From Chitinophagales bacterium (GTDB taxonomy: Bacteria; Bacteroidota; Bacteroidia; Chitinophagales; UBA2359): a stretch of DNA of 52,035 nucleotides. Positions 7,393 to 52,035 of this stretch are shown here, piece by piece. Within the stretch, counting starts at the first letter, position 1. Every line of letters begins with the position of its first letter. The stretch spans positions 1 to 52,035 of the forward strand of contig JBMZCV010000010.1 in the NCBI GenBank assembly GCA_049613665.1, given 5' to 3'. The translations under genes were made by a program, and so were the position numbers. The notes beneath the pieces were generated by a model. It saw nothing but the letters and a program-made list of their open reading frames with translations, did not search any database and had not been told where the DNA came from.

Positions 7393-7449
7393 TTTTAAAC
7401 TAAATAAAAGTTTTCTTTTTTAGCGAAAAGAAAAATATAGAAAACAACA

Positions 7450-7492
7450 AACATTGAGCGAAAAAGTCTATTTCGTTCAATGTTTTTCTTGT
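7450..7492 (+). terminator. Rho-independent terminator of the large surface-protein gene.
   Basis: 14-bp stem AACATTGAGCGAAA/TTTCGTTCAATGTT with one mismatch and a 7-nt loop, followed by TTTCTTGTT. Confidence 0.6.
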
Positions 7493-7551
7493 TATAGCAA
7501 CTTCTTAAATATTTAATCTATATCTTTGCTTTCAAAAAGAAATAGATAAGC

Positions 7552-8031
7552 ATGAATAAACATTTCATTGAACTATTGAAATACGATTTTTGGGCAACCC
7601 AACAACTTTTAAAAACGATTGAAAAATATGAAGTGCAAGATGAAAAAATACTTTTTTGGCTCAATCACACTTACAATGCTCAAATGATATGGCTCAAACG
7701 CATTGTTGGCCAGCAATCTCACCTTACATCAAATACGATGCACGATACTGAACATCTAGCTAGCTTTTTTATGCAAGTCAATTCTTTTTTGTTAGGCTTG
7801 TTATATAATCGAAAAAACGAAAATGTTCCCAATCTGAATACCATTATTGCTTATAAAAATAGCAAAGGAATTTCATTTGAAAATACAATGCAAAGCATTT
7901 TTTCGCACCTTTTGCATCATTCCACACACCATAGAGGGCAAATTTGCTCACAACTGCGAAATTTAGGTATTCAGCCACCGCCAATAGATTATATTTTTTA
8001 TAAAAGAAAACAGCAAAGTGAAAGACATTAG
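7552..8031 (+). CDS. DinB/YfiT-like (DinB_2) metal-dependent hydrolase-superfamily protein.
   Basis: 159-aa ORF carrying the conserved HHSTHHRGQ motif. Confidence 0.6.
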   Translation: MNKHFIELLKYDFWATQQLLKTIEKYEVQDEKILFWLNHTYNAQMIWLKRIVGQQSHLTSNTMHDTEHLASFFMQVNSFLLGLLYNRKNENVPNLNTIIAYKNSKGISFENTMQSIFSHLLHHSTHHRGQICSQLRNLGIQPPPIDYIFYKRKQQSERH

Positions 8032-8410
8032 AAGCAGAAATGATATTGAGTTATTGGTTAATGATTTTTATAAAAAAGCACTAAAAGATGAGAAAATTGG
8101 CTTCATTTTTACTGATATTGTACAGCTAAATTGGAAAACTCACATACCTATTATATGCGATTTTTGGGAGAGTGTTTTGCTCGACAACATCAAATATAAA
8201 GGAAATCCTATCTTGAAACACATTGCATTGAATAAAAAAATAAATCTTAAAAAAGAACATTTTGAACGTTGGCTCATGCTATGGCAAAAAAGCGTTCAAA
8301 GAAATTTTGCTGGAAAAATAGCCGATGAAGCCATCAAAAAAGCTAACATGATGGGAAATTTGATGCGATATAAAATTGAAAAAAGTAATGACGCTGGCTT
8401 TATACAATAA
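8018..8410 (+). CDS. Truncated-haemoglobin-like (globin-family) protein.
   Basis: 130-aa ORF. DFYKKALKDEKIGFIF and EHFERWLMLW resemble trHb signatures. It overlaps the upstream gene by 14 nt. Confidence 0.45.
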   Translation: MKDIRSRNDIELLVNDFYKKALKDEKIGFIFTDIVQLNWKTHIPIICDFWESVLLDNIKYKGNPILKHIALNKKINLKKEHFERWLMLWQKSVQRNFAGKIADEAIKKANMMGNLMRYKIEKSNDAGFIQ

Positions 8411-8436
8411 AATTGGCTCTTTTTCAATCAAAAGAA

Positions 8437-8470
8437 TCGCAATTCGTATGCGAAAACATACAAATTGCGA
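8437..8470. terminator. Hairpin between convergent genes that could act as a bidirectional terminator.
   Basis: 14-bp stem TCGCAATTCGTATG/CATACAAATTGCGA with one mismatch and a 6-nt loop. A T-rich tract follows on the minus strand. Confidence 0.35.
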
Positions 8471-8509
8471 TAATACCTAATCTCTTCCAAATTATAAAAT
8501 ATCGTTTTC

Positions 8510-9685
8510 CTAATATGTAGCTAAACTTTCGTCAATTTCGTTGGCATAAGCCAAAACACCACCTTTCAAATTATACAAATTATCGAAACCAAAAGCCTCC
8601 TCTAGCTTCCGAATAGCATCGGCACTACGCTTGCCACTTCTACAATGAATGACTACCTTTTTGTTTCGAGCAACTTTTTCAAAAGCCTTTTCAATCTGTC
8701 CCAAAGGTATGAGTTCGCCAGCCAAATTCACAATTTCATATTCATAAGGCTCTCGCACATCTATCAATTGAAAATCTAATTTTTCGTCTCCCCAAGTTTT
8801 CAGCGTTTGCACATCTATCTCTTTCACTTCTTTCGGTTTTTCCGTTTCAAAACCCAAATCGACATTGCAAAATTCTTCATAATCAATCAAATTCGTTTGC
8901 GTTGGGTTTTCGCCAGTTAGCGGATTAAATTTGCTTGGTTTCACTTTCAAAGTGCGAGTATGAAAAGTAGCCGCATCAAACAAAAATAAACGCCCAGAAA
9001 GTGGCTCGCCTACGCCAGAAATAATTTTAATCACTTCCAAAGCTTGCAAACTACCAATGATGCCAGGAAGTACGCCAATCACACCACCTTCTGCACAATT
9101 TGGCACTAACTCGGCAGGTGGCGGTTCTGGAAATAAATCACGATAATTTGGCCCTAAATTTCCTGCTGTATCTCGCCAATTGAAAACAGAAACCTGCCCT
9201 TCAAAGCGAAAAATAGATGCATAAACATTTGGCTTCCCTAGCAACACACTCGCATCATTGACCAAATATCGTGTCGCAAAATTGTCTGTGCCATCTGCCA
9301 CTACATCATAATTTTTCAAAATATCAAGAGCATTTTCCGAAGTCAATTTTGTATTATGAACCGTAATTTCGATATAAGGATTCAACGCCAACAATCGTTT
9401 TTTGGCTGTTTCAGCCTTAGATTTGCCCACATCTTCCACCGTAAATAAGACTTGACGCTGCAAATTGCTGTTATCTACCACATCAAAATCTACAATTCCG
9501 ATATGTCCAACGCCTGCCGCAGCCAAATATAACAAGACAGGACTTCCCAAGCCGCCAGAGCCAACAACTAGCACTTTTGCTGCTTTCAGCTTTCGTTGTC
9601 CTTCAATATTAAACTCTGGAATGATGATATGGCGACTATAACGTGCGATTTCTTCGTTTGAAAATTTTATTTTGTTATCTGACAT
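8510..9685 (-). CDS. moeZ: MoeZ/MoeB-like E1 adenylyltransferase with a C-terminal rhodanese domain (sulfur-carrier-protein activating enzyme).
   Basis: The ThiF/MoeB nucleotide-binding motif LVVGSGGLGSPVLLYLAAAGVG and the rhodanese active-site motif HCRSGKRS are both present. The start is called at MSDNKIKF (9685), because the longer ORF runs into a repeat element. Confidence 0.85.
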   Translation of the reverse strand: MSDNKIKFSNEEIARYSRHIIIPEFNIEGQRKLKAAKVLVVGSGGLGSPVLLYLAAAGVGHIGIVDFDVVDNSNLQRQVLFTVEDVGKSKAETAKKRLLALNPYIEITVHNTKLTSENALDILKNYDVVADGTDNFATRYLVNDASVLLGKPNVYASIFRFEGQVSVFNWRDTAGNLGPNYRDLFPEPPPAELVPNCAEGGVIGVLPGIIGSLQALEVIKIISGVGEPLSGRLFLFDAATFHTRTLKVKPSKFNPLTGENPTQTNLIDYEEFCNVDLGFETEKPKEVKEIDVQTLKTWGDEKLDFQLIDVREPYEYEIVNLAGELIPLGQIEKAFEKVARNKKVVIHCRSGKRSADAIRKLEEAFGFDNLYNLKGGVLAYANEIDESLATY

Positions 9686-9705
9686 TTTTTTGTTTTTATA
9701 AATGA

Positions 9706-9885
9706 CAATAGTTCTGACATTTTTTATAACAATTTTCAGTTTCATAAAAAAACTTCTTTTGACAAGTGAAACATACTATTTTCAGTTCAAAAGGCCATTA
9801 AATTTGCAAATATTGGCCACCTTAACCTAAAAAAAATAGTACGTTTAAACTTTTGATAAAAAAATGTATAAATGTCCGAACTGTT
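9706..9885 (-). mobile_element. MITE-like repeat element, copy A, about 180 bp with terminal inverted repeats, inserted between cysO and moeZ.
   Basis: Reverse-complement match to the elements at 12479-12659 and 51959-52035. The termini are CAATAGTTCTGACATTTT at 9706 and AAATGTCCGAACTGTTG at 9869-9885. Confidence 0.75.
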
Positions 9886-9917
9886 GAAATAAGAAGTTAA
9901 AAATTATTTTTTTAATG

Positions 9918-10196
9918 CTAAAAAGAGCCGCCTGCAATAGCTGGCACAATGCTAACAACTGTTTCGTTAGAAATAGCAGTTTCACTACCATCAAGGCTAT
10001 TAATGTCTTCATCGCCAACATAAATGCGGATAAAAGAGCGAATTTGCTGGTTTTTGTCCAAAATATGAGGTGCTAATTTGGGATTTGCTGCTACCAAATC
10101 GGCAATAGCTGTTTGCACATTTTGGCTATCTACATCAAAAGTTGATTGATTGCCTGTAAATTTTCTTAACGGAGTTGGAATGATAATTTTTGCCAT
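9918..10196 (-). CDS. cysO: CysO-like MoaD/ThiS-family sulfur carrier protein with a C-terminal GG-SF extension.
   Basis: 92-aa ORF. IPTPLRKFTGNQ...IRIYVGDEDI...VVSIVPAIAGG resembles CysO/MoaD2. The ORF ends GGSF-stop (stop codon TAG at 9918-9920). Confidence 0.8.
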   Translation of the reverse strand: MAKIIIPTPLRKFTGNQSTFDVDSQNVQTAIADLVAANPKLAPHILDKNQQIRSFIRIYVGDEDINSLDGSETAISNETVVSIVPAIAGGSF

Positions 10197-10247
10197 GATT
10201 TGTATATTTTTTAAGTTAATTTTTAAATGTATTTTTGCTTTTCAAGC

Positions 10248-10664
10248 TTATAAAACGCTTTCTTCATCAAATATTTTCGTTTCTTCATTGAGCCGCCACG
10301 AGCGTAAAATATCGACTTTTCCATTCATAACTGAAATAATGATGTATGAAAAAAACGGCATTGCTTGCTTCAAATCATGCACCGACGGAATGGCGAGATG
10401 ATTTGGATGTGTGTGATAAATGCCCAACAATTCAATTTGATTTGATAATGCGTATTGCTCTGCTTTCATATAGTCGAAAGGCGAAATTTCAAAACGCCTT
10501 CTTTGGTCGCCTTTTTTGCTATTTTTCGCAGGCCGTGCCAACTCGACATATCGTTTTCCGCCTGTTATTTTTCCATACAAAAAACCGCAACATTCGTTCG
10601 GAAAACTCGCTTCGCTTTGCTCAAACATCACTTTCTTTGAATTTTCATTAATGCTTATTTCCAT
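10248..10664 (-). CDS. mec: JAMM/MPN+ metalloprotease (Mec+/QbsD-like) that processes the sulfur carrier protein.
   Basis: 138-aa ORF with the JAMM motif HTHPNHLAIPSVHD (H-x-H-x7-S-x2-D) and an upstream Glu. It lies between cysM and cysO. Confidence 0.85.
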   Translation of the reverse strand: MEISINENSKKVMFEQSEASFPNECCGFLYGKITGGKRYVELARPAKNSKKGDQRRRFEISPFDYMKAEQYALSNQIELLGIYHTHPNHLAIPSVHDLKQAMPFFSYIIISVMNGKVDILRSWRLNEETKIFDEESVL

Positions 10665-10725
10665 TTTAAAATATTTTTTTATCTACAAACGTTTCGCATC
10701 TATGATGCTTTAAAATGTTTCTTTT

Positions 10726-11667
10726 TTACAAAAAAATATGCTTTAATACTTCGCCATATTTCTCTGCATTGTCTGCGAAAATCGTGACAATAGTGCCTTC
10801 TTTTATCTGTTCTGCAACTTGAATCGCACCAACCAAATTTGCGGCTGCCGAAGGACTCAATAAAATACCTTCTGTTTGTGCAACATGTCGAATCATGTCG
10901 TAAGCTTCCATCGTATCGACTTCCAAATTTTGATGTGCAATGCTGCCGTCATAAATTCGAGGCACTTTCGCTGTTTCGAGATGTTTCCAACCTTCCATAC
11001 CGTGCAAAGCCGAATTTGGCTGAAACGAAATCAGTTGAATATTAGGGTTCAACAATTGCAATTTTCGGCTTGTGCCAACAAAAGTTCCTGTTGTGCCGAT
11101 TCCTGTTGCGAAATGCGTAATTTTTTGATTCGTTTGCTCAAAAATTTCTACTGCTGTTGTCTCGAAATGTGCTTTCCAATTGTTTTCGTTAGCATATTGG
11201 TCGGCATAAAAATACTTGTTTGGATAAGCTGCTGCCAACTCTTTAGCTTTTGCTTGCGAGCCATCTGTGCCATCGAAACGAGAAGTATAAATGATTTCTA
11301 CGCCAAGAGCTTTGAGAATTTGCTTGCGTTCTGCCGAAGCATTTTCTGGCAAACACAAACTTACTTTTATGCCCAAAGCCGCTCCGATAGACGCATAAGC
11401 AATGCCTGTATTGCCACTTGTAGCGTCTAAAAGCGTTATGTTTTCATGTATAAATCCTTGATTAACAGCATTTTTTATGATGTTGAAAGCTGGCCGAGCT
11501 TTTACACTTCCACCAAGTTGTTGCCATTCTAGCTTGGCAAAAATTTGTATATTCTTTTTTTGAAAAGCTCTTTTTATTGGAAACAAAGGCGTATTTCCGA
11601 TAAAAGATTGTATGTTTTTGAGTCTTTCAAGAAGTTTTTGGCTGACTTGTCGTTTTACTTGATTCAT
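10726..11667 (-). CDS. cysM: PLP-dependent cysteine synthase of the CysM type (uses a thiocarboxylated carrier and O-phosphoserine/O-acetylserine).
   Basis: 313-aa ORF with the fold-II PLP motifs GGSVKARPAFNII and TSGNTGIAYA. It is the first gene of the cysM-mec-cysO-moeZ block. Confidence 0.85.
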   Translation of the reverse strand: MNQVKRQVSQKLLERLKNIQSFIGNTPLFPIKRAFQKKNIQIFAKLEWQQLGGSVKARPAFNIIKNAVNQGFIHENITLLDATSGNTGIAYASIGAALGIKVSLCLPENASAERKQILKALGVEIIYTSRFDGTDGSQAKAKELAAAYPNKYFYADQYANENNWKAHFETTAVEIFEQTNQKITHFATGIGTTGTFVGTSRKLQLLNPNIQLISFQPNSALHGMEGWKHLETAKVPRIYDGSIAHQNLEVDTMEAYDMIRHVAQTEGILLSPSAAANLVGAIQVAEQIKEGTIVTIFADNAEKYGEVLKHIFL

Positions 11668-11694
11668 TTTATGATAGACGTTTTTTGTATGGCG

Positions 11695-11738
11695 AAAAAA
11701 AAATGCACTTTTTCAACTGAATGAAAAAGTGCATTTTT
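11695..11738 (-). terminator. Attenuator terminator T2, a perfect intrinsic terminator 28 nt upstream of the cysM start codon.
   Basis: On the minus strand the sequence reads AAAAATGCACTTTTTC-attcagtt-GAAAAAGTGCATTTTT followed by nine T. The stem is a perfect 16 bp. Confidence 0.75.
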
Positions 11739-11763
11739 GATAAAAAATATTTTTTACAATAAA

Positions 11764-11847
11764 TTACATAGCTACGCCTTTCCACTTTTGGTGAATGAAA
11801 CAACAACAGCAGCAACAGCAATTGATATGTAAATTTGTAAATAACAT
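11764..11847 (-). CDS. Cysteine leader peptide 1: MLFTNLHINCCCCCCCFIHQKWKGVAM, with seven consecutive Cys codons.
   Basis: Reverse complement of 11764-11847 reads ATG TTA TTT ACA AAT TTA CAT ATC AAT TGC TGT TGC TGC TGT TGT TGT TTC ATT CAC CAA AAG TGG AAA GGC GTA GCT ATG TAA. It lies between terminator T1 and terminator T2. Confidence 0.7.
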   Translation of the reverse strand: MLFTNLHINCCCCCCCFIHQKWKGVAM

Positions 11848-11872
11848 GTTTAGATAATTTTTCAGTAACAAC

Positions 11873-11927
11873 AAAAAATAGAAAAAGCCTTTCTTATGAC
11901 CAAATAGTCTTGTAGAAAGGCTTTTTC
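11873..11927 (-). terminator. Attenuator terminator T1.
   Basis: On the minus strand the sequence reads GAAAAAGCCTTTCT-(20-nt loop)-AGAAAGGCTTTTTC followed by TATTTTTTGT. The stem is a perfect 13 bp. Confidence 0.65.
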
Positions 11928-11968
11928 AAACATTGCAATGTTTATATAATAACACAATCTTTCCACAT

Positions 11969-12022
11969 TTATGGACAATACATAAAACAGCAACAACAAC
12001 AAAATGAATGAATTAATCGCAT
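11969..12022 (-). CDS. Cysteine leader peptide 2: MRLIHSFCCCCCFMYCP, with five consecutive Cys codons plus one more.
   Basis: Reverse complement reads ATG CGA TTA ATT CAT TCA TTT TGT TGT TGT TGC TGT TTT ATG TAT TGT CCA TAA. It lies about 40 nt upstream of terminator T1 on the minus strand. Confidence 0.55.
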   Translation of the reverse strand: MRLIHSFCCCCCFMYCP

Positions 12023-12478
12023 AATGAGAAAGATTGAAATATTCTATATTATTTAATACTAAGCGTTTATTTTTAAACGGACTGCTATAATACGGCGTTT
12101 TTTTTAGAAAAACAAACCTAGAACATCATAAAAGTTACAAAGTGTATCTTTAATCAGTTTTGTGACATAAAATTGACTTTTTGGATTATTTTGCTTTACC
12201 CAAATAAAATAATAGTGTGTTTGTATTTGAATGTTTGCTTTTTATTCGTATTTTGAAAAAAAACAAATATTTTGCTTTTTTACTGAAAATAGTAATAAAA
12301 TAGTGCTTTTTTCCTTTTTATATTTTGACAGTTTTTTCACATTCCTTATTTTACACCATGTTTTCTAAAAAAAGATGTAAATTTATTGTTCAAGACTAAT
12401 TTTTAATTTACGCTGTGTCAAAGGCTATTGAATAATAATGCTATTTGTGCTAACACCTTAAAAAACTTGTTAGTTTAC

Positions 12479-12659
12479 CAATAGTTCGGATATTTATACG
12501 TTTTTTATCAAAGACTTAAACATATTATTTTTTTTAGGCTAAGGTGGCCACTATTTGCAAACTTTATAGCCTTTTGAACTAAAAAATAGTAGGTTTCCCT
12601 TGCCAAAAGGTGTTTTTTTATTCGACTGAAAATTGTTATAAAAAATGTCCGAATCATTG
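12479..12659 (+). mobile_element. MITE-like repeat element, copy B, 181 bp with 17-18-bp terminal inverted repeats.
   Basis: Left terminus CAATAGTTCGGATATTT; right terminus AAAATGTCCGAATCATTG, which is the inverted form. A possible 5-bp target-site duplication, TTTAC, flanks it. An internal GGCTAAGGTGGCCA core is shared with copies A and C. Confidence 0.75.
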
Positions 12660-12748
12660 TTTACATAAACTGTAAAATAAATTTGTCCAAATACTTACTA
12701 AACATAAGTTTATTTTTTAATTTATATTATAAAGTTAAATCTACTTAA

Positions 12749-13429
12749 TTGATGAAATCAAAAATTGTATTAATAACGGTTTTATTTTTCTCGCTATTCA
12801 TGTTTAGCAACTGCTCCAACTCAGCTAGTTGTACTGATGGCATTCAAAACCAAGGCGAAAGAGGGATTGATTGTGGCGACGATGCTGGCTTATGTCCTGC
12901 TTGTTCCGATTGTACCAATGGTATTAAAGATGGTGGAGAAGAAGGCATAGATTGTGGTGGGCCAAATTGCGACCCATGCGAAACAGCAGTAGCGAGCTGC
13001 ACTGATGGCATTCAAAATCAAGGCGAAGAGGGCATAGACTGTGGCGGCCCTTGTACGGCTTGCGACCCTATTATTATAGGTGGCGATGCTGCTATGACAG
13101 CAACCATAGATACGGTAGCATTTGTAGCTACTAGCGTAGTGGCAGTTGTGGTTGAGCCACTTGTGAGCATCACAGGAAATGCTGGCGATATAGGAATTGC
13201 TTTGTCTTATTCTGGCACATTAGAAACAGGTACTTTCGACTTGGCAAGTGCTACGATGACACAAGATGTTATCTCTTGTACATCTACTAGCGGCACGATT
13301 ACATTTTCGAGCGTAGATACCGACAATCAACTTTTATCTGGCTCATTCGAGTTTGATTGCAACGATATTTTGGGTGGTACAGGCGACCATAGCATCACAT
13401 CTGGTACTTTTGAAAATGTAAGTTTCTAA
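12749..13429 (+). CDS. Secreted lipoprotein with three tandem Cys-rich modules (about 25 aa, four Cys each).
   Basis: The signal/lipobox is MFSNC. The repeats are SCTDGIQNQGERGIDCGDDAGLCPAC, SDCTNGIKDGGEEGIDCGGPNCDPC and ASCTDGIQNQGEEGIDCGGPCTAC. A Thr/Ser/Val-rich C-terminal half follows. The modules are also visible as DNA repeats. Confidence 0.65.
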   Translation: MMKSKIVLITVLFFSLFMFSNCSNSASCTDGIQNQGERGIDCGDDAGLCPACSDCTNGIKDGGEEGIDCGGPNCDPCETAVASCTDGIQNQGEEGIDCGGPCTACDPIIIGGDAAMTATIDTVAFVATSVVAVVVEPLVSITGNAGDIGIALSYSGTLETGTFDLASATMTQDVISCTSTSGTITFSSVDTDNQLLSGSFEFDCNDILGGTGDHSITSGTFENVSF

Positions 13430-15072: not shown

Positions 15073-17073
15073 ATGACAGCTACACAAATATTTTATCAAA
15101 ACATTGCCCAAATTAGAGATTTGTTTCATAAATATGGTCGTTTTGATGATGCTAATGCCAAACTAGACGAATTGTCGAAATACTTATGTATTTATGTTTA
15201 TGAAAAACAAAGTCCAAAGTTAGCAAAATATAATATAGCAAGCTTACTTATTGAGTTTGAAAAAAACAATTCTTTTTCACTTGTTTCAAAAATTCAAGAA
15301 TTGTTTCATCAAGTTATACTTATTGATGAATTAAAAGATGCCAATGGACATTCCATATTTAAAAATTCGGCAAAGCTAAATATTGCAGCCGATGACCATC
15401 AGTTTGCTTATGCTTTATTAAAATTAGTTTGCAATGCTGTTGATGGCATTATTGAAGGCGAAAGAAACTTTGATGTTCTCAATGAATGTTTTGGACACTT
15501 TGTGAGAGCTAATTTTAGAAATCACATTGAAGATGCCCAATATATGACTCCCAATGAAGTAGTCGAATTTATTTGCGATATAGCACTTCACGATATAAAT
15601 GTCACAGATGTAGATTTAAAAGAATTTATAGTTTTAGACCCTTGTTGTGGTGTTGGCTCGTTTATTTCTACATTTTATCAAAAAAACTTAACTTCAAAAA
15701 AGGTTAAAAATCTAACAGTCATTGGCCAAGATAAAGTAGAAAGAATGGCCAGATTATCGAAAATAAACCTTTTTCTTGCCAACAATAAAAAGCATATTAT
15801 TTCAAACAACAATTCACTTTCAGGAAAGTCTGCACTTGATAATTTGCATGGAAAAGTTGATTTAATACTAACCAATCCTCCTTTTGGAGCAAAGTTTACG
15901 AGCGATGAATTAAAAGTTGATGCAAAAAAAAATTATCCTCATTTATTTGATATTATAGTAAGAAAAAACAAAACGTTTAACTCAGAAGTCTTATTCGTTG
16001 ATAAATGCCTTTCTTTGCTAAAACCAAATGGTAAATTGTTGGCAGTAGTGCCAGATAGCGTTATTTCCTCTAAGGGCCTTAATGAAATGTTAAGACGTAG
16101 ATTAGCGTATAAAAATAATATTCACATTAAAGCTATTATAGAATTGCCAAATGTCACTTTCGCACAAGCAGGCACACGCACCAAAACAAGTATTCTTTAT
16201 ATTGAGAAAGGAACAAGCAAAATTTCTAATACTTTTATTGCGAAAAGCGAAAGTATTGGTTTTGAAGTTAGTACCAAAAAAGGTGCAACCATAAAACATG
16301 AGCAAGGCGAAAATGATTTGTTAAGTATTTTTAAAGCTTATGTTTCGCAAATGGATTTTAAGAATGGTTTGGATATTCAAAAAGTCATTCAAAAACAGCC
16401 TTCTTGTGTTGCTATTCCTTCCGAATGGTTAAAAGAACAAACATGGACTCCCAACCATTATAAAGCATCAAAATTTACTTCTTTTGATAATATGAAAATT
16501 CCAGCAAAAGAAGTAAACTTTGTAAAGTTGTCAGATATTGCATTTTTCGATACCAAAAAGAGAAAGAAAGAAATTTTGGCCAATGATGCAAAATGTATTA
16601 GCGTACTTCATATAAACGATGAAAATTTAAACTATGAAGATTTTCTAAATTATGCTCCCAAATATATGGGCATTCCTTGTCAAAATGGCGATTTGCTCTT
16701 TTCAAAAATAAACCCTAGAATTGTTAGAATATTTGTTATACCTAATTTACCTTATGCTTTAAGCTGTTCTTCCGAATTTGAAGTACTCAATTCTTCAACC
16801 GAACTGAGCAATTATGCTCTAAAAATGTTGTTATTGTTGCCTGCTGTTCAAATTCAAATTAAAGCTTCTACTTCTGGCACATCGTCTTCTCACAATAGAA
16901 TAAAAACTAACGAATTATCTAATCTTATTATTCCAATGCCCAAAAAAGGTAGCAACTATTATACATCTTTTATTGAAAAAGCAAAAAAATACGAAGAAGA
17001 CAGTATCGCCTACAACAATTTAATTTTTACTATGTATAAAACTAAAATGGAAGTTTTCGACATGGTTGAATAA
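15073..17073 (+). CDS. Gamma-class N6-adenine DNA methyltransferase with its own target-recognition region (Type II-like restriction-modification methylase).
   Basis: 666-aa ORF. Motif X (AQYMTPNEVVEFI), motif I (VLDPCCGVGSFI) and motif IV (LTNPPFGAKF) are present, with a C-terminal region of about 300 aa. The local sequence is A+T-rich. Confidence 0.8.
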   Translation: MTATQIFYQNIAQIRDLFHKYGRFDDANAKLDELSKYLCIYVYEKQSPKLAKYNIASLLIEFEKNNSFSLVSKIQELFHQVILIDELKDANGHSIFKNSAKLNIAADDHQFAYALLKLVCNAVDGIIEGERNFDVLNECFGHFVRANFRNHIEDAQYMTPNEVVEFICDIALHDINVTDVDLKEFIVLDPCCGVGSFISTFYQKNLTSKKVKNLTVIGQDKVERMARLSKINLFLANNKKHIISNNNSLSGKSALDNLHGKVDLILTNPPFGAKFTSDELKVDAKKNYPHLFDIIVRKNKTFNSEVLFVDKCLSLLKPNGKLLAVVPDSVISSKGLNEMLRRRLAYKNNIHIKAIIELPNVTFAQAGTRTKTSILYIEKGTSKISNTFIAKSESIGFEVSTKKGATIKHEQGENDLLSIFKAYVSQMDFKNGLDIQKVIQKQPSCVAIPSEWLKEQTWTPNHYKASKFTSFDNMKIPAKEVNFVKLSDIAFFDTKKRKKEILANDAKCISVLHINDENLNYEDFLNYAPKYMGIPCQNGDLLFSKINPRIVRIFVIPNLPYALSCSSEFEVLNSSTELSNYALKMLLLLPAVQIQIKASTSGTSSSHNRIKTNELSNLIIPMPKKGSNYYTSFIEKAKKYEEDSIAYNNLIFTMYKTKMEVFDMVE

Positions 17074-17076
17074 AAT

Positions 17077-17718
17077 TTAAACTGCCTCCAAACACATTCC
17101 CCTTGTCAAGACACTTTTTTTGAAATATACAATGTCATACGACAATTTATTGCTATTCCAAATAGCTTCTAAAAAAAGCGGATAGTGCAAGTTTCCACAA
17201 CTATTTCTAAATTCATTAGAGTTTTTACCTCTTGGCGGATGCAACTGAAAGTTATTGCTAGTAATAATGCCTTCATCTCTTTTTTTATACCAAACAGCAC
17301 ACATTTTGCGAAAAAAAGGGTCTTTAGGTGGCCGAACAAGCCAAACTCTGCATCTTTCGCTTTTATGTTTAGGTTCATTATCCCACAAAACAAAAATAAG
17401 TTTTGGCATAGTATCTAAATAAGATAAATTACCAGAATATTCGCTTTTTGTACCTGCTTTAATAACGCCATTAAAGCGTGGTGTATCAATTGCTCCCCAT
17501 GTATTAGCACCTTTTACATCTGAGCCATCAAGTAAATCAGGGCCTTTTTTTCGCCCATATCCTTCTATTCCTGTTAGCAAACTAGCTAATATTTGAGACC
17601 AAGCTCTTGTATCAGTTGGCGTAGGCTGTTTTGTTGCTTTTGCATAAGGTTCGACAGCAAAAAATGATTGATGGTGTAAATTAAGAAATGTAAGCACTTC
17701 CCTCAAATCTGTATTCAT
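17077..17718 (-). CDS. Candidate cognate restriction endonuclease of unknown family.
   Basis: 213-aa ORF convergent with the methylase and separated from it by a 3-nt gap. It has no recognisable family; GPDLLDGSDVKG is a weak PD-(D/E)xK-like pattern. The call rests on position. Confidence 0.4.
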   Translation of the reverse strand: MNTDLREVLTFLNLHHQSFFAVEPYAKATKQPTPTDTRAWSQILASLLTGIEGYGRKKGPDLLDGSDVKGANTWGAIDTPRFNGVIKAGTKSEYSGNLSYLDTMPKLIFVLWDNEPKHKSERCRVWLVRPPKDPFFRKMCAVWYKKRDEGIITSNNFQLHPPRGKNSNEFRNSCGNLHYPLFLEAIWNSNKLSYDIVYFKKSVLTRGMCLEAV

Positions 17719-20746: not shown

Positions 20747-21928
20747 ATGGATTTCGATAGCTGGCAAAAAAAACAAGGCAATACGAATGTTAAAGCAAAA
20801 GAGCAAAAACCAAAAGCAAAGCAAAAGTCGTGGAAACGAGAGTTGTTAGAGTTGGCTATTATTGCATTTATTATCGTTCCGCTCATCAATATTTTCGTGT
20901 TGCAATCTTATGCTATTCCGACTTCTTCTATGGAAAATGAAATGTTGGTAGGCGACAAACTTTTTGTTAGCAAATTTCATTATGGTGCAAGAGTGCCGAT
21001 GACTCCTATTGCATTTCCGTATGTGCACAATACTTTGTTTGGCTCGCCATCTTATACCGAAGCTGTCAAATTGCCATATAAAAGACTGCCTGGCATTGCT
21101 CCTTTGAAGCGAAACAACATCGTGGTATTCAATTATCCAGGCGATGTGAAATATGATATTCCTGTCGATAAGCGAGAAAATTATGTGAAGCGTTGTGTGG
21201 CAGTAGCTGGCGATGAAATTCAAGTGATTGAAGGCGAAGTTTTTATAAATGGCGAAAAAGGCGAAAAGCTGAGAAATCTACAACATGCCTACCAAGTTAT
21301 GACGACAAATGAACCTTTCAATCCGAAAAAAATAAAAGAATTGGGCGTTTCAGAAGTCTATCGTTTTCCGAAACGTGGCAATGAACCTGCTATTCCAATT
21401 TCAAAACTCGGTGGTGTGAAAGCTTCTGCTTATACTTTTATGCTGACCGAAAAAGCAGCAGCAGCTTTAGAAAAAATGAGCAATGTGCAAGTTGTCAAAA
21501 GAATGATACAGCCTGTCGAAGCAGCAGATGTATATATTTTTCCTCGTGACGAGCGTTTTGCGTGGAATGTCGATAATTTTGGCCCTGTTTATTTGCCAAA
21601 AGCTGGCGAAAGTATCAAATTGGACTCTACCAACTTTGCGATTTACGAATATCATATTCGCAACTACGAAGGCGAAAAAGATATTACTTTCAAAAATAAT
21701 CAAGCTTATCTCAACGGAAAAGCCATTGAAAGTTATACTTTTAAACAAAATTACTACTTTATGATGGGCGACAACCGACACAATTCGGCCGACTCTCGCT
21801 ATTGGGGTTTTGTGCCAGAAGACCATATCGTGGGCAAACCAATTTTCGTGTGGCTTTCTACCGAAAAAGATGCCACAGGTTGGTCTGACTGGGTGCGTTG
21901 GGGAAAAAGTATGAGAACTGTTCAATAG
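20747..21928 (+). CDS. lepB: Signal peptidase I, paralog 1.
   Basis: Catalytic Ser motif SSMENEMLVGDKLFVSK and the Lys box [24 protein letters not shown]. Confidence 0.85.
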   Translation: MDFDSWQKKQGNTNVKAKEQKPKAKQKSWKRELLELAIIAFIIVPLINIFVLQSYAIPTSSMENEMLVGDKLFVSKFHYGARVPMTPIAFPYVHNTLFGSPSYTEAVKLPYKRLPGIAPLKRNNIVVFNYPGDVKYDIPVDKRENYVKRCVAVAGDEIQVIEGEVFINGEKGEKLRNLQHAYQVMTTNEPFNPKKIKELGVSEVYRFPKRGNEPAIPISKLGGVKASAYTFMLTEKAAAALEKMSNVQVVKRMIQPVEAADVYIFPRDERFAWNVDNFGPVYLPKAGESIKLDSTNFAIYEYHIRNYEGEKDITFKNNQAYLNGKAIESYTFKQNYYFMMGDNRHNSADSRYWGFVPEDHIVGKPIFVWLSTEKDATGWSDWVRWGKSMRTVQ

Positions 21929-22406: not shown

Positions 22407-23639
22407 ATGACAACTCCTTCTGATTCGAGTGTTGAACCTAACGAAAAACCGATTAAAAAGAAGCCAAAACCGCTTTGGCGTGAATGGTTTGATGCCTTGT
22501 TTTTCGCTATTATTGCGGCCACCATCATCCGCACTTTTTTCATTGAAGCCTACACTATTCCGACTTCTTCGATGGAAAAAACTATGCTTGTAGGCGATTA
22601 TCTTTTTGTTAGCAAGCTAAATTATGGTGCAAGAGTGCCAATGACACCGCTTTCGTTTCCTTTCGCACATCATACGATGCCTTTTACGGGTGGCAAATCA
22701 TATAGCGAAGCTTTGAAATTGCCTTATTGGAGACTGCCTGGTTTTCAAGATATAAAACGCAACGATATTATTGTTTTCAATTATCCGATGGAAAGTATGC
22801 GGCCTGTCGATAAGCGAGAAAACTATATCAAACGTTGTGTTGGGTTGCCAAGTGATACGCTACAAATCGTGAATCGGCAGTTGCTCATCAACAACGATAA
22901 ATCGGAAGATATGGGCAATATGCAGTTTAATTATTTTGTGCGAACAAACGGCAATCACATCAATAAAAACGATTTATTTAAGCTAAATATCACAGAAGGT
23001 GGTTTGAACGAAGCCACCGATAGTTTCAATTTGTATAAATATGCTTTGACGCTCGAAAGTCTGGAAAAGATGTCGAAATTTAAGAATGTCGTCAAAATAG
23101 ATACCGTTATGCGTGACAAAGGTATTTATAGCGAAGAGGTGTTTCCGCTTTATCCAAAATTGATGCAAATGGCTCATGCCGAACATCATAATCAAGATAC
23201 GATAACTAAAGTTTCTAAGCAAATTATGAAAAGTTTTGCGTGGAATATCGACAACTTTGGCCCTTTGGTAGTGCCAGCGAAAGGCGACACGGTAGAACTA
23301 AACTTAGAAAATATTTATTTGTATGAACGCATTATTAGGGTGCATGAACACAATGATTTGCAGTTTAACAATGACCAAATACGCATCAATGGCAAGGTGG
23401 CGACTTCTTATGTTTTCAAGATGAATTATTATTTTATGATGGGCGACAACCGACACAATTCGGCGGACTCTCGCTATTGGGGTTTTGTGCCAGAAGACCA
23501 TATCGTGGGCAAAGGCTGGCTAGTGTGGCTCTCGCTAAAACCGATAAATCTCAATCGCAAGGCTGGCTTTTTTAGCAAATATGTGTTTAAAGGGAAAGAA
23601 GTGCGTTGGGATAGGTTTTTTAAGTGGATACATGAGTAA
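22407..23639 (+). CDS. lepB: Signal peptidase I, paralog 2.
   Basis: [17 protein letters not shown] and [24 protein letters not shown]. The second motif is almost nucleotide-identical to paralog 1 over 79 nt. Confidence 0.85.
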
Positions 23640-40279: not shown

Positions 40280-40759
40280 ATGAAAAAAACAACAATATTA
40301 CATACATTTCTTTCGGTAGGTATTTTCTTTTTTCTTTTCCTACAAACCGCCTGCGACAAAGCTGGCCTTATTCGCATAGATGGCGTAGAACTCTTAGGCT
40401 TAGAAGAATGTTGGCAGTTCGATTTCGAGGAGATATTGATAGACGACAGCCTCACTTATCAAGATTTGTTAGATTATAGAAGTGCCGCCGCCGAGTGCAG
40501 CAATATCGAATTGCCAGCCATAGATTTTGCGAAACGCACCCTTTTTGGCAAAAAAAGCGAAGTGACGAGTTGCGAAGTATTTTATTTCAGAAGTGTGTTT
40601 GCAGACCCAGAAAATAAGGAGTATCTGTACGAAATCGTCGTTTCAAACAGTTCGGCAGCAAGTTGTACACAGCAGACTTTTAGCAGCATGAATTGGCTTT
40701 CTGTGCCGAAAATGCCAGAGAATTATACGCTTAGGTTTGATTTGAAATATGAGGAATAG
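40280..40759 (+). CDS. Hypothetical lipoprotein.
   Basis: 159-aa ORF with a signal peptide and the lipobox LQTAC. Confidence 0.5.
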   Translation: MKKTTILHTFLSVGIFFFLFLQTACDKAGLIRIDGVELLGLEECWQFDFEEILIDDSLTYQDLLDYRSAAAECSNIELPAIDFAKRTLFGKKSEVTSCEVFYFRSVFADPENKEYLYEIVVSNSSAASCTQQTFSSMNWLSVPKMPENYTLRFDLKYEE

Positions 40760-40897
40760 TTTTTAATTATGAGTTTTTAGTTTTTAATTATGAGTTTTTA
40801 GTTTTTAGTTATTACACTGTAATATAAAAAATCAAGGGTTTTAAAGGCATTTTATCCGATAAAACTTAAATTACAGTGTAGTTATTTTTTTTGAAAA

Positions 40898-45648: not shown

Positions 45649-47958
45649 ATGATAATTTTAAATATTTTAGCTCCTATCTTAGCTGTTTCAGCAGGTTTCA
45701 TCTTGTTGCTTATGGTCGGAAGCGTCATCTTTTACCTTTCTTTTTACAAGAAAGTTCCTCAAGGCCAAGCCTTAGTACGCACAGGGCGAGGTGGTATTCG
45801 GGTGGCTTTCGACGAAGGTATGTTGGTTATTCCTGTTTTGCATCTTGGCGAAGTGATGGATACTTCACTAAAAAAATTGGAAATTGCTCGTATCGGAAAA
45901 GATGGTTTGATTTGTAACGACAATTTGCGAGCCGACATAAAAGTTGTATTTTTTGTGCGAGTAAATCAGAAAGAAGAAGATGTAAGAAGAGTAGCTCAAT
46001 CTATTGGTTGTACGAGAGCTTCGAGCAATGAGACACTTGTAAATCTGTTTGATGCCAAATTTTCGGAGGCTTTAAAAACGGTAGGTAAGCAGTTCAACTT
46101 TGTTGATTTATACAATTCTCGTGAAAAATTTAAGAACGAAATTTTGAATACTATCGGTCGTGACTTAAACGGCTATATTCTTGATGACTGTGCCATTGAC
46201 TATTTGGAGCAAACACCCTTAGAATATTTGAAGCCAGATAATATTTTAGATGCTCAAGGTATCAAAAAAATTACGGAACTGACTGCAAATGAAAAAATCA
46301 AAGCCAACCTTATTAGAAGAGATGAAGAAAAAACCATTAAGAAGCAAAATGTAGAAGCTCAGGAAGCTATTTTGGAATTGGATAGACAATTGGCAGAAAA
46401 ACAAGCGATTCAACATCGTGAAATTGCAACAATAAAAGCTAGAGAAGAAGCTGAAACCGAAAAAATAACACAAGAAGAACGTTTGAAATCTGAACGAGCG
46501 AGAATAACGACAGAAGAAGAAATGCAAATTGCAGAAGAAAATAAGCAACGACAAGTTATTGTGGCTCAAAAAAATAAGGAACGCACCGAAGTCGTAGAAA
46601 CCGAAAGAGTGGAAAAAGACCGTTCTTTGGAGCAAACAGAGCGTGAAAAAGTAGTGGCTTTGGCAAGTATAGAAAAAGAAAAAGCAGTAGAAGAAGAAAA
46701 GCGAAATATTCAGGAAGTGATAAGAGAGCGTGTTGTTGTGGAACGTGGCGTAGTGGAAGAAGAAGAAAAAATAAAAGATACACGAGCAGTTGCAGAAGCT
46801 GACCGTTCAAAAACTGTGGCTTTGACTGTGGCTTCGCAAAAAGCAGAGGAAATCATGGTGAGAACGGTTAAAGCAGCAGAAGCAGAAAAAGAAGCAGCAA
46901 AAATTGCAGCAGAACGCAAAGTGATTGAAGCTCAAGCCAAGAAAGATGCTGCTGGACGTGAGGCAGATGCAAAAATAATTTTGGCAGAAGCAACCGCAGC
47001 AGAAGAGGCAGCTATCGGAAAGGCAGAGGCTCAAGTGATTGAGGCAAAAGCGGAAGCTGCTGAACGTGAAGGTATGGTAGAAGCAACAATTATGGAGAAA
47101 AAAGCAGTTGTCGAAGCTAAAGCAATTGAGTTAAAAGCAGAAGCAGCGAAAAAACAGGGCTTGGCAAAGGCAGAAGTCATCGCAAAACAAGGCTTGGCAG
47201 AGGCTCAGGTAATCGAACAAAAAGCGATTTCGGAAGCAAAAGGTTTGCAAGAAAAAGGCCTGGCAGAAGCACAAGTCATTGAAAAACAAGGCTTGGCAGA
47301 GGCTCAGGTAATCGAACAAAAAGCGATTTCGGAAGCAAAAGGTTTGGAGCAGAAAGGTTTGGCAGAAGCGATTGCTTACGAGAAACAAGCACTTGCCGAA
47401 GCAAAAGGTATGCAAGAAAAAGGTCTGGCAGATGCAAAAAGTATTGAACTGAAAGCAGAAGCCATGAAAAAATTAAATGGTGTAGGCAGAGAACACGAAG
47501 AATTTAAGTTGCGATTGGAGAAAGACAAAGAAATTGCTCTGGCTCAAATCAATATTCAAAAGCACGTTTCGGAAGCACAAGCGAAAGTGATTGCAGAAGC
47601 TTTGAAATCAACGAAAATTGATATTGTTGGTGGTGAAACGATGTTTTATGACAACATCATTAACTCGGTAATGCGTGGAAAATCTATTGATAGAATGGTT
47701 GATAATAGCAATAGCTTGACTGACCTGAAACAAAATTTATTGGGCGGAGATGGAAATGCAATTGGAAAAGTGCGTGAATTTATCGCTCAATTTGGCTTAG
47801 ATACCAACGATGTCAAAAATCTAACGCTATCAAGTGCCTTGCTCAAGTTTAGTCAATTGACACAAGATGCTGGCACAAAAAATACATTGCAGCAAATGCT
47901 AGAGTCAGTTAAAAATACTGATTTGGCAACGAAAACACTTGAAAGTTTGGGCTTGTAA
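45649..47958 (+). CDS. Flotillin-like SPFH/Band-7 protein with a long Glu/Ala/Lys-rich coiled-coil repeat region.
   Basis: 769-aa ORF with an N-terminal transmembrane segment, an SPFH domain and roughly 33-aa repeats of the form KQGLAEAQVIEQKAISEAKGL. Confidence 0.75.
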   Translation: MIILNILAPILAVSAGFILLLMVGSVIFYLSFYKKVPQGQALVRTGRGGIRVAFDEGMLVIPVLHLGEVMDTSLKKLEIARIGKDGLICNDNLRADIKVVFFVRVNQKEEDVRRVAQSIGCTRASSNETLVNLFDAKFSEALKTVGKQFNFVDLYNSREKFKNEILNTIGRDLNGYILDDCAIDYLEQTPLEYLKPDNILDAQGIKKITELTANEKIKANLIRRDEEKTIKKQNVEAQEAILELDRQLAEKQAIQHREIATIKAREEAETEKITQEERLKSERARITTEEEMQIAEENKQRQVIVAQKNKERTEVVETERVEKDRSLEQTEREKVVALASIEKEKAVEEEKRNIQEVIRERVVVERGVVEEEEKIKDTRAVAEADRSKTVALTVASQKAEEIMVRTVKAAEAEKEAAKIAAERKVIEAQAKKDAAGREADAKIILAEATAAEEAAIGKAEAQVIEAKAEAAEREGMVEATIMEKKAVVEAKAIELKAEAAKKQGLAKAEVIAKQGLAEAQVIEQKAISEAKGLQEKGLAEAQVIEKQGLAEAQVIEQKAISEAKGLEQKGLAEAIAYEKQALAEAKGMQEKGLADAKSIELKAEAMKKLNGVGREHEEFKLRLEKDKEIALAQINIQKHVSEAQAKVIAEALKSTKIDIVGGETMFYDNIINSVMRGKSIDRMVDNSNSLTDLKQNLLGGDGNAIGKVREFIAQFGLDTNDVKNLTLSSALLKFSQLTQDAGTKNTLQQMLESVKNTDLATKTLESLGL
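47188..47346 (+). repeat. Tandem 99-nt repeat inside the flotillin gene, with two 60-nt blocks that are 100% identical.
   Basis: CAAGGCTTGGCAGAGGCTCAGGTAATCGAACAAAAAGCGATTTCGGAAGCAAAAGGTTTG occurs at 47188-47247 and again at 47287-47346. Confidence 0.8.
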
Positions 47959-51958: not shown

Positions 51959-52035
51959 CAATAGTTCGGACATTTATAGTTTTTTTTATCAAAGGTTTAA
52001 ACATACTATTTTTTTTAGGCTAAGGTGGCCAATAT
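51959..52035 (+). mobile_element. MITE-like repeat element, copy C, truncated by the window edge.
   Basis: CAATAGTTCGGACATTTATAGTTTTTTTTATCAAAGGTTTAAACATACTATTTTTTTTAGGCTAAGGTGGCCAATAT matches copies A and B. Confidence 0.7.

Follow-up and report, generated by a model that had tools for sequence, protein, structure and literature searches.

Protein-thiocarboxylate-dependent cysteine synthesis is best known from Mycobacterium tuberculosis. According to the summaries of Burns 2005 given in PMC8280819 and PMC3227635, the thiocarboxylate of a carrier protein reacts with a PLP-bound aminoacrylate and a JAMM protease then carries out the release step. In the tuberculosis literature the CysO/CysM route is considered actinomycete-specific (PMC8280819) and a pathogen-specific drug target. 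A neighbourhood with all the required protein types had already been catalogued by Iyer, Burroughs & Aravind 2006 (PMC1779556). Row 4c of their Table 1 combines ThiS/MoaD, JAB, E1-rhodanese and cysteine synthase, with members from Salinibacter ruber (then assigned to Bacteroidetes/Chlorobi), P. aeruginosa, R. palustris, Solibacter, Rubrobacter and Chloroflexus. This class was termed 'uncharacterized', only a general coupling between sulfur transfer and cysteine production was proposed, and Cys leaders, CysO extensions or fusions and the breadth among Bacteroidota were not covered. The Chitinophagales operon described here is identical in composition and is a further member of class 4c.

Carriers that are translated with residues beyond their GG motif occur in other pathways. 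In the HcyS/HcyD/HcyF/MetY methionine pathway of Wolinella succinogenes, the carrier has post-GG residues which are removed by the JAMM protease before adenylation. JAMM enzymes also trim the GG-extended carriers of the QbsE/QbsD and CxnE/CxnF pairs (PMC5925218). The Hcy, Qbs and Cxn systems resemble our operon in that the post-GG residues need JAMM removal before adenylation, but they feed homocysteine or secondary metabolites through other sulfur-accepting enzymes. Our literature search found no paper on the CysO pathway or on a Cys leader in Bacteroidota.

A four-gene operon with conserved gene order

The window analysed here is an entire contig of 52,035 nt, listed at NCBI as 'MAG: Chitinophagales bacterium', and the original attribution to a Bacteroidota genome is thus correct. 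The ORF listing of the window has four co-oriented minus-strand ORFs at 8510-11667, with exactly the bounds originally predicted:

10726-11667, minus strand: cysM-like fold-type II PLP cysteine synthase, 313 aa (Pfam PALP, 2e-64)
10248-10664, minus strand: mec-like JAMM/MPN+ zinc metalloprotease, 138 aa (Pfam Prok-JAB, 1.6e-21)
9918-10196, minus strand: cysO-like ThiS/MoaD sulfur-carrier precursor, 92 aa, tail ...PAIAGG-SF (Pfam ThiS, 4.2e-09)
9705-9898, unstranded: MITE-like repeat between cysO and moeZ, about 195 nt, folds as a long hairpin
8510-9685, minus strand: moeZ-like E1 adenylyltransferase with rhodanese sulfurtransferase, 391 aa from M21 (ThiF, 2e-81; Rhodanese, 6.8e-12)
8436-8471, unstranded: palindromic terminator 3' of moeZ at the operon end (terminator scan: 16-pair stem and T run; inverted repeat I22)

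The genes had been described as tightly spaced. This applies to the cysM-JAMM (61 nt) and JAMM-cysO (51 nt) gaps but not to the cysO-moeZ gap, which carries the MITE-like insert and extends over 172 nt up to the first ATG and 232 nt up to the likely true start of moeZ; in relatives, this gap has a median of 34 nt. In full, the moeZ ORF covers 8510-9745 (411 aa). Its ATG at 9745 is part of the repeat, and the alignment with homologues begins only at residue ~11-28, so that M21 (ATG at 9685) is the likely start.

Of the 73 related Bacteroidota loci that are long enough for the comparison, 72 share the order cysM-JAMM-cysO-moeZ. These loci span Saprospiraceae, Chitinophagaceae, Microscillaceae, Cyclobacteriaceae, Flavobacteriales and Balneolales. 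Because the same genes are found in the same order in nearly all these loci, the arrangement is not due to chance. The M. tuberculosis genes run mec-cysO-cysM inside an 11-gene operon with moeZ elsewhere, whereas here moeZ is within the operon. Clustering of 534 flank ORFs from 80 loci revealed no conserved neighbour beyond the four genes. Neither moaE, moaA, moaC nor other Moco genes occur among the 45 window ORFs scanned or in the conserved flank clusters of the 80 loci, and siderophore-type linkage (AMP-ligase, oxidoreductase, siderophore transport) is likewise absent from the window and from these conserved flanks. Clustering with molybdopterin or siderophore pathways, which had been named as a counter-indication to the original prediction, is thus not seen. 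There is no ThiG or tRNA-thiolase gene near the four genes in the related loci, and neither cysK nor cysE was found on the 52-kb contig. A peroxiredoxin and a YeeE/YedE pair are occasional neighbours in related loci.

The CysM-like PLP enzyme

Pfam and NCBIfam confirm all four of the predicted domain assignments (CysM-type, JAMM/MPN+, CysO-like, E1 plus rhodanese). At the family level, the cysM and MoeZ models match as expected and the carrier is nearest to CysO, but all scores stay below the NCBIfam cut-offs, and the best models for carrier and protease are SAMP1 and desampylase. As none of the window proteins reaches an NCBIfam equivalog cut-off, we treat them as homologous counterparts with orthology unproven.

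For the PLP enzyme, the best NCBIfam model is cysM (TIGR01138, 2.7e-88, 296 bits, equivalog cut-off 394), followed by cysKM and cysK, with threonine synthase and dehydratases far lower; a closer relationship to threonine synthase or another fold-type II enzyme, the second counter-indication, is therefore also absent. Among solved structures, E. coli CysM (2bht, 1.7e-49) is the best match, and M. tuberculosis CysM (3dwg) reaches 4e-41. The alignment contains the PLP lysine (SVKAR), the TSGNTG loop and the short CysM-type loop without the CysK insert. Compared with M. tuberculosis CysM (32.6% identity), the enzyme has KAR for KDR, lacks the long C-terminal tail and has a lysine at the position of Arg220, the residue which confers O-phosphoserine use in M. 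tuberculosis. The lysine is part of a conserved motif, HG.EGWKHLETA, shared by 90% or more of 80 sequences, and the positive charge at this position is thus retained. M. tuberculosis CysM and the two E. coli enzymes CysM and CysK are all equally far from it, at 32-34% identity. We count this, and the Lys in place of Arg220, against a CysO-dependent route. The enzyme represents a clade of its own. At NCBI it is named 'PLP-dependent cysteine synthase family protein'.

Carrier, protease and activating enzyme

The best solved relative of the carrier is M. tuberculosis CysO (3dwg_C, 6e-11), in line with the original match to the CysO pathway of this organism. It is followed by 4n6e_B (3e-09), which we take to be a carrier serving another pathway, and MoaD-type proteins range from 0.01 to 0.5. 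Identity to M. tuberculosis CysO is 36% over 87 aa (E 5e-17). The best NCBIfam model is archaeal SAMP1 (48.9 bits, cut-off 60).

M. tuberculosis CysO ends in GG. As translated, the window carrier has no free C-terminal GG and ends in GG-SF. Its relatives conserve PAIAGG, while the tail beyond GG is variable. From 1 to 12 extra residues follow PAIAGG in about 60 of the 75 CysO homologues, 9 loci have an in-frame CysO-MoeZ fusion, and only 4 homologues end at GG. From these extensions and fusions it follows that cleavage after GG would be obligatory and that the JAMM protease would also have to mature the carrier. Three precursors end in GG-C, GG-CE or GG-CCC, and these ends mimic the CysO-Cys adduct.

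The protease carries the JAMM motif E24...H84-T-H-x7-S-x2-D, which is also present in 75 of 75 relatives. Its best PDB match is 2kcq (1.7e-21), and the best NCBIfam model is archaeal desampylase (51.6 bits, cut-off 130). Identity to a sequence taken as M. tuberculosis Mec is 26% (E 9e-09).

The moeZ product matches the NCBIfam MoeZ model NF005902 over its full length with 474 bits, below the cut-off of 647; the SAMP-activating E1 model gives 288 bits (cut-off 450). All 66 aligned MoeZ relatives retain GSGGLG, C217 within CAEGGV and the rhodanese cysteine C368 within CRSGKRS, and the CxxC zinc motif is found in none of 71.

Cysteine leader peptides and predicted attenuation

Two short ORFs with consecutive Cys codons, each followed by a terminator, precede cysM:

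11969-12022, minus strand: Cys leader ORF 1, MRLIHSFCCCCCFMYCP, 5 consecutive Cys codons (read from the sequence)
11873-11927, minus strand: intrinsic terminator 1, 14-bp perfect stem and U run (inverted repeat I23; fold)
11764-11847, minus strand: Cys leader ORF 2, MLFTNLHINCCCCCCCFIHQKWKGVAM, 7 consecutive Cys codons
11691-11738, minus strand: intrinsic terminator 2, 17-bp perfect stem, 6-nt loop, U9 (inverted repeat I9; fold z = -4.9)

Both terminators fold strongly, and the second one is located ~22 nt upstream of the cysM ATG. The two leaders contain the only runs of at least 5 Cys codons in the window. Poly-Cys leaders are found upstream in 62 of 80 relatives; they have 4-8 consecutive Cys codons, are often paired in tandem and are not conserved outside the Cys run. 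We counted 76 poly-Cys sORFs in the upstream regions (45.6 kb, sense strand) and 21 in 1.65 Mb of other sequence, which is a 130-fold enrichment. A hairpin with U run lies behind 72 of the 76, and complementarity of an antiterminator to the 5' arm of the terminator has a mean z of -2.1 and is negative in 93% of 74 cases. Cys run, terminator, antiterminator pairing and conservation upstream of the operon are thus all found, and the leaders are predicted to be leader-peptide transcription attenuators. The original argument, that an operon behind Cys attenuators probably serves cysteine supply and not cofactor biosynthesis, is strengthened by these counts.

When Cys-tRNA is plentiful, the ribosome would reach the leader stop codon and mask the antiterminator segment, leading to termination. 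When it is scarce, the ribosome would stall in the Cys run, and the antiterminator could pair with the 5' arm of the terminator and permit read-through into cysM. An intrinsic terminator behind the leader is shared with classical trp/his attenuators and with uORFC-8-2 from Rhodobacterales (PMC8632094). The latter has two Cys codons and controls cysS, whereas 4-8 codons would control cysM-mec-cysO-moeZ here. Mycobacterial polycysteine sORFs (bioRxiv 10.1101/834739; PMC1262725) lack terminators and act on translation, in contrast to the transcription attenuation proposed here, and regulation in M. tuberculosis is by AosR/SigH.

Rfam had no match in the whole window at the gathering threshold; in E-value mode, positions 9600-12800 gave only sub-threshold matches at chance level (TD-1 with 31.5 vs 64.5 bits, mir-290, RefA9). 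A sigma-70 promoter scan is uninformative for Bacteroidota. By eye, a candidate Bacteroidota-type promoter motif, TTTG-N17-TAGGTTTG, was spotted at 12141-12113.

Proposed pathway and alternative explanations

We consider it likely that the four genes form a self-contained operon for protein-thiocarboxylate-dependent cysteine synthesis, a Bacteroidota counterpart of M. tuberculosis CysM/CysO/Mec/MoeZ which is induced by low charging of cysteinyl-tRNA. The four protein types, the intact JAMM motif, the full-length E1 plus rhodanese architecture and the reaction logic are alike in the two systems. From homology we infer the following steps. The JAMM protease would cut the GG-SF precursor after GG and expose the C-terminal glycine, which the E1 domain of MoeZ would adenylate; the persulfide on the rhodanese Cys368 would then yield CysO-COSH. 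The PLP enzyme would convert O-phospho- or O-acetyl-serine to aminoacrylate, which CysO-COSH would attack, and an S-to-N acyl shift would give CysO-Gly-Gly-Cys. A second JAMM cut after GG would free cysteine and recycle CysO. If the sulfur source of MoeZ were cysteine, the pathway would be futile, and this counts against our reading.

It is unlikely that the PLP enzyme is an ordinary CysM using sulfide or thiosulfate, with the carrier/JAMM/E1 trio drawing on the adjoining cysteine for another sulfur-transfer job (Moco, a thio-cofactor or tRNA thiolation). E. coli CysM does match the PLP enzyme with a slightly better score than its M. tuberculosis counterpart, mycobacterial MoeZR serves both Moco and CysO (PMC3227635), and Iyer et al. 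went no further than general coupling. However, 72 of 73 loci keep the four genes side by side, genes for MoaE, MoaA, ThiG or a tRNA thiolase do not occur in their vicinity, the carrier is far nearer to CysO than to MoaD-type proteins, JAB proteases are missing from thiamin and Moco operons (PMC1779556), and the entire unit lies behind putative Cys-specific attenuators. A ubiquitin-like conjugation of proteins as with SAMP or TtuB, in which the JAMM protein would be the deconjugase, is suggested by the best NCBIfam models for carrier and protease and by the E1 match. We judge it very improbable: all three scores are below their cut-offs, the rhodanese domain with its conserved catalytic Cys points to sulfur transfer, and conjugation offers no rationale for the linkage to a cysteine synthase or for Cys attenuators.

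That the product is not cysteine but another thio-metabolite (a thioquinolobactin/PDTC-like siderophore, a 2-thiosugar or homocysteine) has an even slighter likelihood. JAMM-trimmed, GG-extended carriers are indeed found in secondary-metabolite clusters (QbsE/QbsD, CxnE/CxnF), and 4n6e_B presumably serves a different pathway, but no further biosynthetic genes are conserved beside the four, the PLP enzyme is a CysK/CysM family member rather than one of the MetY or SbnA type, and the predicted regulation is specifically by Cys codons. We give next to no credence to a CBASS-like anti-phage module (Cap2 E1-E2/Cap3 JAB) or to the poly-Cys peptides being RiPP precursors modified by the downstream enzymes. 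PADLOC detected weak similarity at the level of domains: JAB matches reached at most 36 bits, and E1-E2 matches at most 66 bits and were confined to the E1 core, against 474 bits for the MoeZ model. There is no E2 domain, CD-NTase or effector. RiPP precursors are disfavoured by the lack of conservation outside the Cys run, and the terminators with antiterminator complementarity that nearly always follow, together with frequent tandem duplication, are hallmarks of attenuators.

Occurrence and significance of the proposed CysO route

The complete enzyme set including moeZ is a conserved unit in many Bacteroidota families, in contrast to its description as actinomycete-specific. The chances are about even that much of the Bacteroidota makes cysteine through a pro-CysO that is cut by JAMM from its tail or from MoeZ, under widespread and undescribed tandem poly-Cys attenuators. 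If this is true, the 'actinomycete-specific' CysO route is a major environmental cysteine pathway, and a co-transcribed 1-Cys peroxiredoxin would link it to oxidative stress in some lineages. Public annotation gives only generic names, and the putative Cys-codon attenuators upstream provide a built-in clue to the role of the operon. The natural CysO-MoeZ fusions and GG-X tails are clean substrates for the study of Mec-type JAMM proteases, and the leaders may provide a compact cysteine-responsive transcriptional switch from a phylum with few characterised riboregulators.

An inserted repeat between cysO and moeZ

None of the related loci contains the MITE-like repeat. In the window, a second copy in inverted orientation (12464-12660) shares 84-85% identity with it, and 51959-52035 holds part of a third. 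The repeat could affect co-transcription of cysO and moeZ in this genome. The inverted copies bracket the leaders and cysM-mec-cysO, and an invertible or mobile cassette was considered. This was judged unlikely, as the copies are only ~85% identical, the third one is at the contig end, there is no recombinase nearby, and the relatives lack the repeat. A multi-copy MITE is the simpler reading.

Gene content and family assignment

The original prediction of a complete operon for thiocarboxylate-dependent cysteine synthesis stands at the level of sequence analysis, both as an observation and in its interpretation. The operon is predicted to work like the CysO pathway of Mycobacterium tuberculosis, the chemistry of which is summarized in PMC8280819, and it belongs to the 'uncharacterized operon' class 4c neighbourhood, which includes Salinibacter ruber (Iyer, Burroughs and Aravind 2006, PMC1779556). 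Four co-oriented genes are indeed found, and the host belongs to the Bacteroidota as stated, the NCBI record reading 'MAG: Chitinophagales bacterium'. The window makes up one entire contig (52,035 nt) of this MAG, among whose proteins are MGB1204487.1 and MGB1204493.1.

10726-11667, minus: PLP enzyme (cysM-like), 313 aa, Pfam PALP
10248-10664, minus: JAMM protease (mec-like), 138 aa, Pfam Prok-JAB
9918-10196, minus: carrier (cysO-like), 92 aa, Pfam ThiS
8510-9745, minus: E1 enzyme (moeZ-like), 411 aa, Pfam ThiF and Rhodanese
8436-8471: palindromic terminator at the operon end (terminator scan)

For the PLP enzyme, the top NCBIfam model is cysM (TIGR01138, 2.7e-88), followed by cysKM, cysK, CBS and SbnA, while models for threonine synthase and dehydratase rank far behind. 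This agrees with the proposed CysM-type identity, with a score below the equivalog cut-off. None of the four proteins reaches a curated NCBIfam equivalog cut-off (cysM 296 against 394, MoeZ 474 against 647), and the NCBI annotation of the PLP enzyme is merely 'PLP-dependent cysteine synthase family protein'. The E1 enzyme is matched over its full length by MoeZ NF005902, which ties with the MoeB model PRK07411 (both 473.8 bits). The best NCBIfam models for carrier and protease are archaeal SAMP1 and desampylase, each below its cut-off.

In the alignment, the PLP lysine (SVKAR) and the TSGNTG loop of the PLP enzyme are in place, and its loop is of the short CysM type, with neither CysK insert nor IQGIG segment. 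A lysine occupies the position of M. tuberculosis Arg220, within a clade-specific HG.EGWKHLETA motif. The enzyme is roughly equidistant from M. tuberculosis CysM (32.6% identity, sequence checked against 3dwg_A), E. coli CysM (34.2%, sequence from a structure-database alignment) and E. coli CysK (32.1%, computed with what we take to be its sequence). The top solved relatives of the carrier are M. tuberculosis CysO (3dwg_C, 6e-11) and 4n6e_B (3e-09), as compared to only 0.01-0.5 for MoaD-type structures; pairwise, carrier and M. tuberculosis CysO share 36% identity over 87 residues (E 5e-17).

Conservation of the four-gene module

One genome per species was searched for proteins related to the PLP enzyme; of the 136 relatives found, the 80 best were fetched with their loci (L002-L081). 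Labels among these 80 are Saprospiraceae, Chitinophagaceae, Microscillaceae, Cyclobacteriaceae, Flavobacteriales, Balneolales and others, and there are also two MAGs labelled Comamonadaceae. Among cultured bacteria, Adhaeribacter swui, Paraflavitalea spp., Taishania pollutisoli and Fulvivirgaceae BMA10 are candidate carriers of the operon. Of the 73 loci with sufficient DNA, 72 have the identical order cysM-JAMM-cysO-moeZ. The sole JAMM-less locus, L074, has a 125-nt gap from cysM to a shortened cysO (L074:1442-1567), with a CysO that terminates at GG; the absence may be a genuine loss or an assembly artefact.

Clustering of 534 flanking ORFs from the 80 loci revealed no further conserved neighbours and no Moco or siderophore genes, so that carrier and protease are not grouped with molybdopterin or siderophore pathways. 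The four genes, with their order kept and no other conserved neighbour, therefore behave as a self-contained module. Pfam shows neither another PALP enzyme nor a serine acetyltransferase, a sulfate-assimilation protein or a Moco protein among the products of the other 41 window ORFs.

The JAMM signature (E24 and H84-T-H-x7-S-x2-D) is kept in 75 of 75 relatives. In the MoeZ-like protein, GSGGLG and two cysteines, C217 of the E1 part and C368 of the rhodanese part, are kept in all 66 aligned relatives, and CxxC zinc motifs are absent from all 71 MoeZ-like proteins.

A few loci carry additional genes. A 1-Cys peroxiredoxin is encoded between leader and cysM in L042, L050, L056 and L068, and directly after moeZ in L014, L075 and L079. 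In the former four loci it lies downstream of a Cys leader, which may point to a connection with oxidative stress such as has been reported for the pathway of M. tuberculosis. Upstream of the operon in L052, L069, L073 and L077, and downstream of it in L080, there is a same-strand split gene pair of the YeeE/YedE type ('Sulphur transport', PF04143), a possible link to sulfur uptake.

Carrier precursors and fusions

The CysO of the window ends with PAIAGG-SF. About 60 of 75 related carriers have 1-12 variable residues beyond GG, four terminate at GG, and two are not clear-cut. The remaining nine are fused in frame to MoeZ, with a linker of 4-40 residues after GG.

L014, L042, L043, L057, L060, L063, L066, L075, L079 (related loci), about 7400-8900 in each: CysO-MoeZ fusions

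Cleavage after GG is obligatory because the glycine carboxylate has to be free for adenylation, and the co-conserved JAMM protein would be the obvious enzyme for this cut. Precedents for carrier trimming are QbsE (GG-CF)/QbsD and CxnE/CxnF (PMC5925218). In three carriers the GG is directly followed by cysteine (L024 GG-C, L028 GG-CE, L032 GG-CCC), so these precursors encode the CysO-Cys bond which is hydrolysed by M. tuberculosis Mec. As this bond is contained in the precursor, one GG-specific protease would be able to do both jobs, and we propose that a single enzyme may act in carrier maturation and in product release.

Cysteine leaders and probable attenuation

Two short ORFs with cysteine runs precede cysM.

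12022-11969, minus: Cys leader ORF MRLIHSFCCCCCFMYCP
11847-11764, minus: Cys leader ORF MLFTNLHINCCCCCCCFIHQKWKGVAM

They hold the only runs of at least five Cys codons in the window, and behind each of them lies a perfect hairpin of 14 or 17 bp with a U run. Among the 80 related loci, 62 have poly-Cys sORFs, with two per locus in 14 cases. The 600-nt stretches preceding cysM are enriched 130-fold in such sORFs (76, as opposed to 21 in 1.65 Mb elsewhere), and a hairpin with U run lies downstream of 72 of the 76. Complementarity of the segment lying between Cys run and terminator to the 5' arm of the terminator is above that of shuffled sequences (mean z = -2.1), antiterminator z being negative in 93% of 74 cases.

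The leader region (11691-12022) is built like a classical ribosome-mediated transcription attenuator, predicted to sense Cys-tRNA charging. This layout argues for cysteine, and not a cofactor, as the operon product. The cysteine-supply role that had been suggested for genes behind such leaders is thus backed, as far as sequences can tell, by the predicted tandem attenuators and by their recurrence among the related loci across Bacteroidota.

Cys-run leaders without terminators are known from Actinobacteria (PMC1262725), polycysteine attenuators of M. smegmatis act translationally (bioRxiv 10.1101/834739), and an attenuator with two Cys codons precedes cysS in Rhodobacterales (PMC8632094). A description of a poly-Cys leader element from Bacteroidota was not found in the searchable literature, and no Rfam family matches the element.

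Alternative functions and relation to the CysO pathway

Five other readings were weighed. The carrier-JAMM-E1 trio might serve a separate sulfur-transfer role, the genes might form a Ubl conjugation system or a defence module, the product might be another thio-metabolite, or the poly-Cys peptides might be RiPP precursors. All are disfavoured by the strict linkage of the four genes, the affinity of the carrier to CysO and the Cys-specific regulation. The predicted CysO-type cysteine operon differs from the M. tuberculosis pathway in having moeZ inside the operon, a carrier that requires maturation, a PLP enzyme from a divergent clade and tandem Cys leaders as control. The novelty is modest; its most publishable details are the attenuator and the pro-CysO/fusion pattern.

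A MITE-like repeat within the operon

A MITE-like repeat occurs in at least three copies in the window, and none of the 80 related loci contains it.

9705-9898: MITE-like repeat, about 195 nt, terminal inverted repeats of about 16 nt, between cysO and moeZ
12464-12660: inverted copy, 84-85% identical, upstream of the leaders
51959-52035: partial copy at the contig end

Two inverted copies flank the leaders and cysM-mec-cysO. Insertion of the repeat accounts for the wide spacing of cysO and moeZ and for a spurious moeZ ATG further upstream, at 9745, and also for the public Logan assembly contig L001 breaking precisely at these two copies. The copy at 9705-9898 folds into a long hairpin that is not followed by a U run, so that read-through into moeZ would be plausible.

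Additional observations in the window

The palindromic terminator of the operon is shared with a convergent 130-aa ORF (8018-8410, no Pfam match), which overlaps the end of a DinB-family gene (7552-8031). There is also a restriction-modification pair, in which an Eco57I-type N6 DNA methylase (15073-17073, plus) converges with a MamI-family endonuclease (17077-17718, minus). Two S26 signal-peptidase paralogues that lie side by side in the same orientation (20747-21928 and 22407-23639) are unusually long (393 and 410 aa). A 21-nt tandem repeat (40757-40812, 2.7 copies, 97% match) lies directly past the ORF at 40280-40759. A 769-aa membrane-anchored protein without Pfam match (45649-47958) has a long Glu/Ala/Lys-rich coiled coil with 99-nt (33-aa) tandem repeats at 47158-47439, and this repeat-bearing coiled coil accounts for the pronounced purine skew between 46 and 48 kb.
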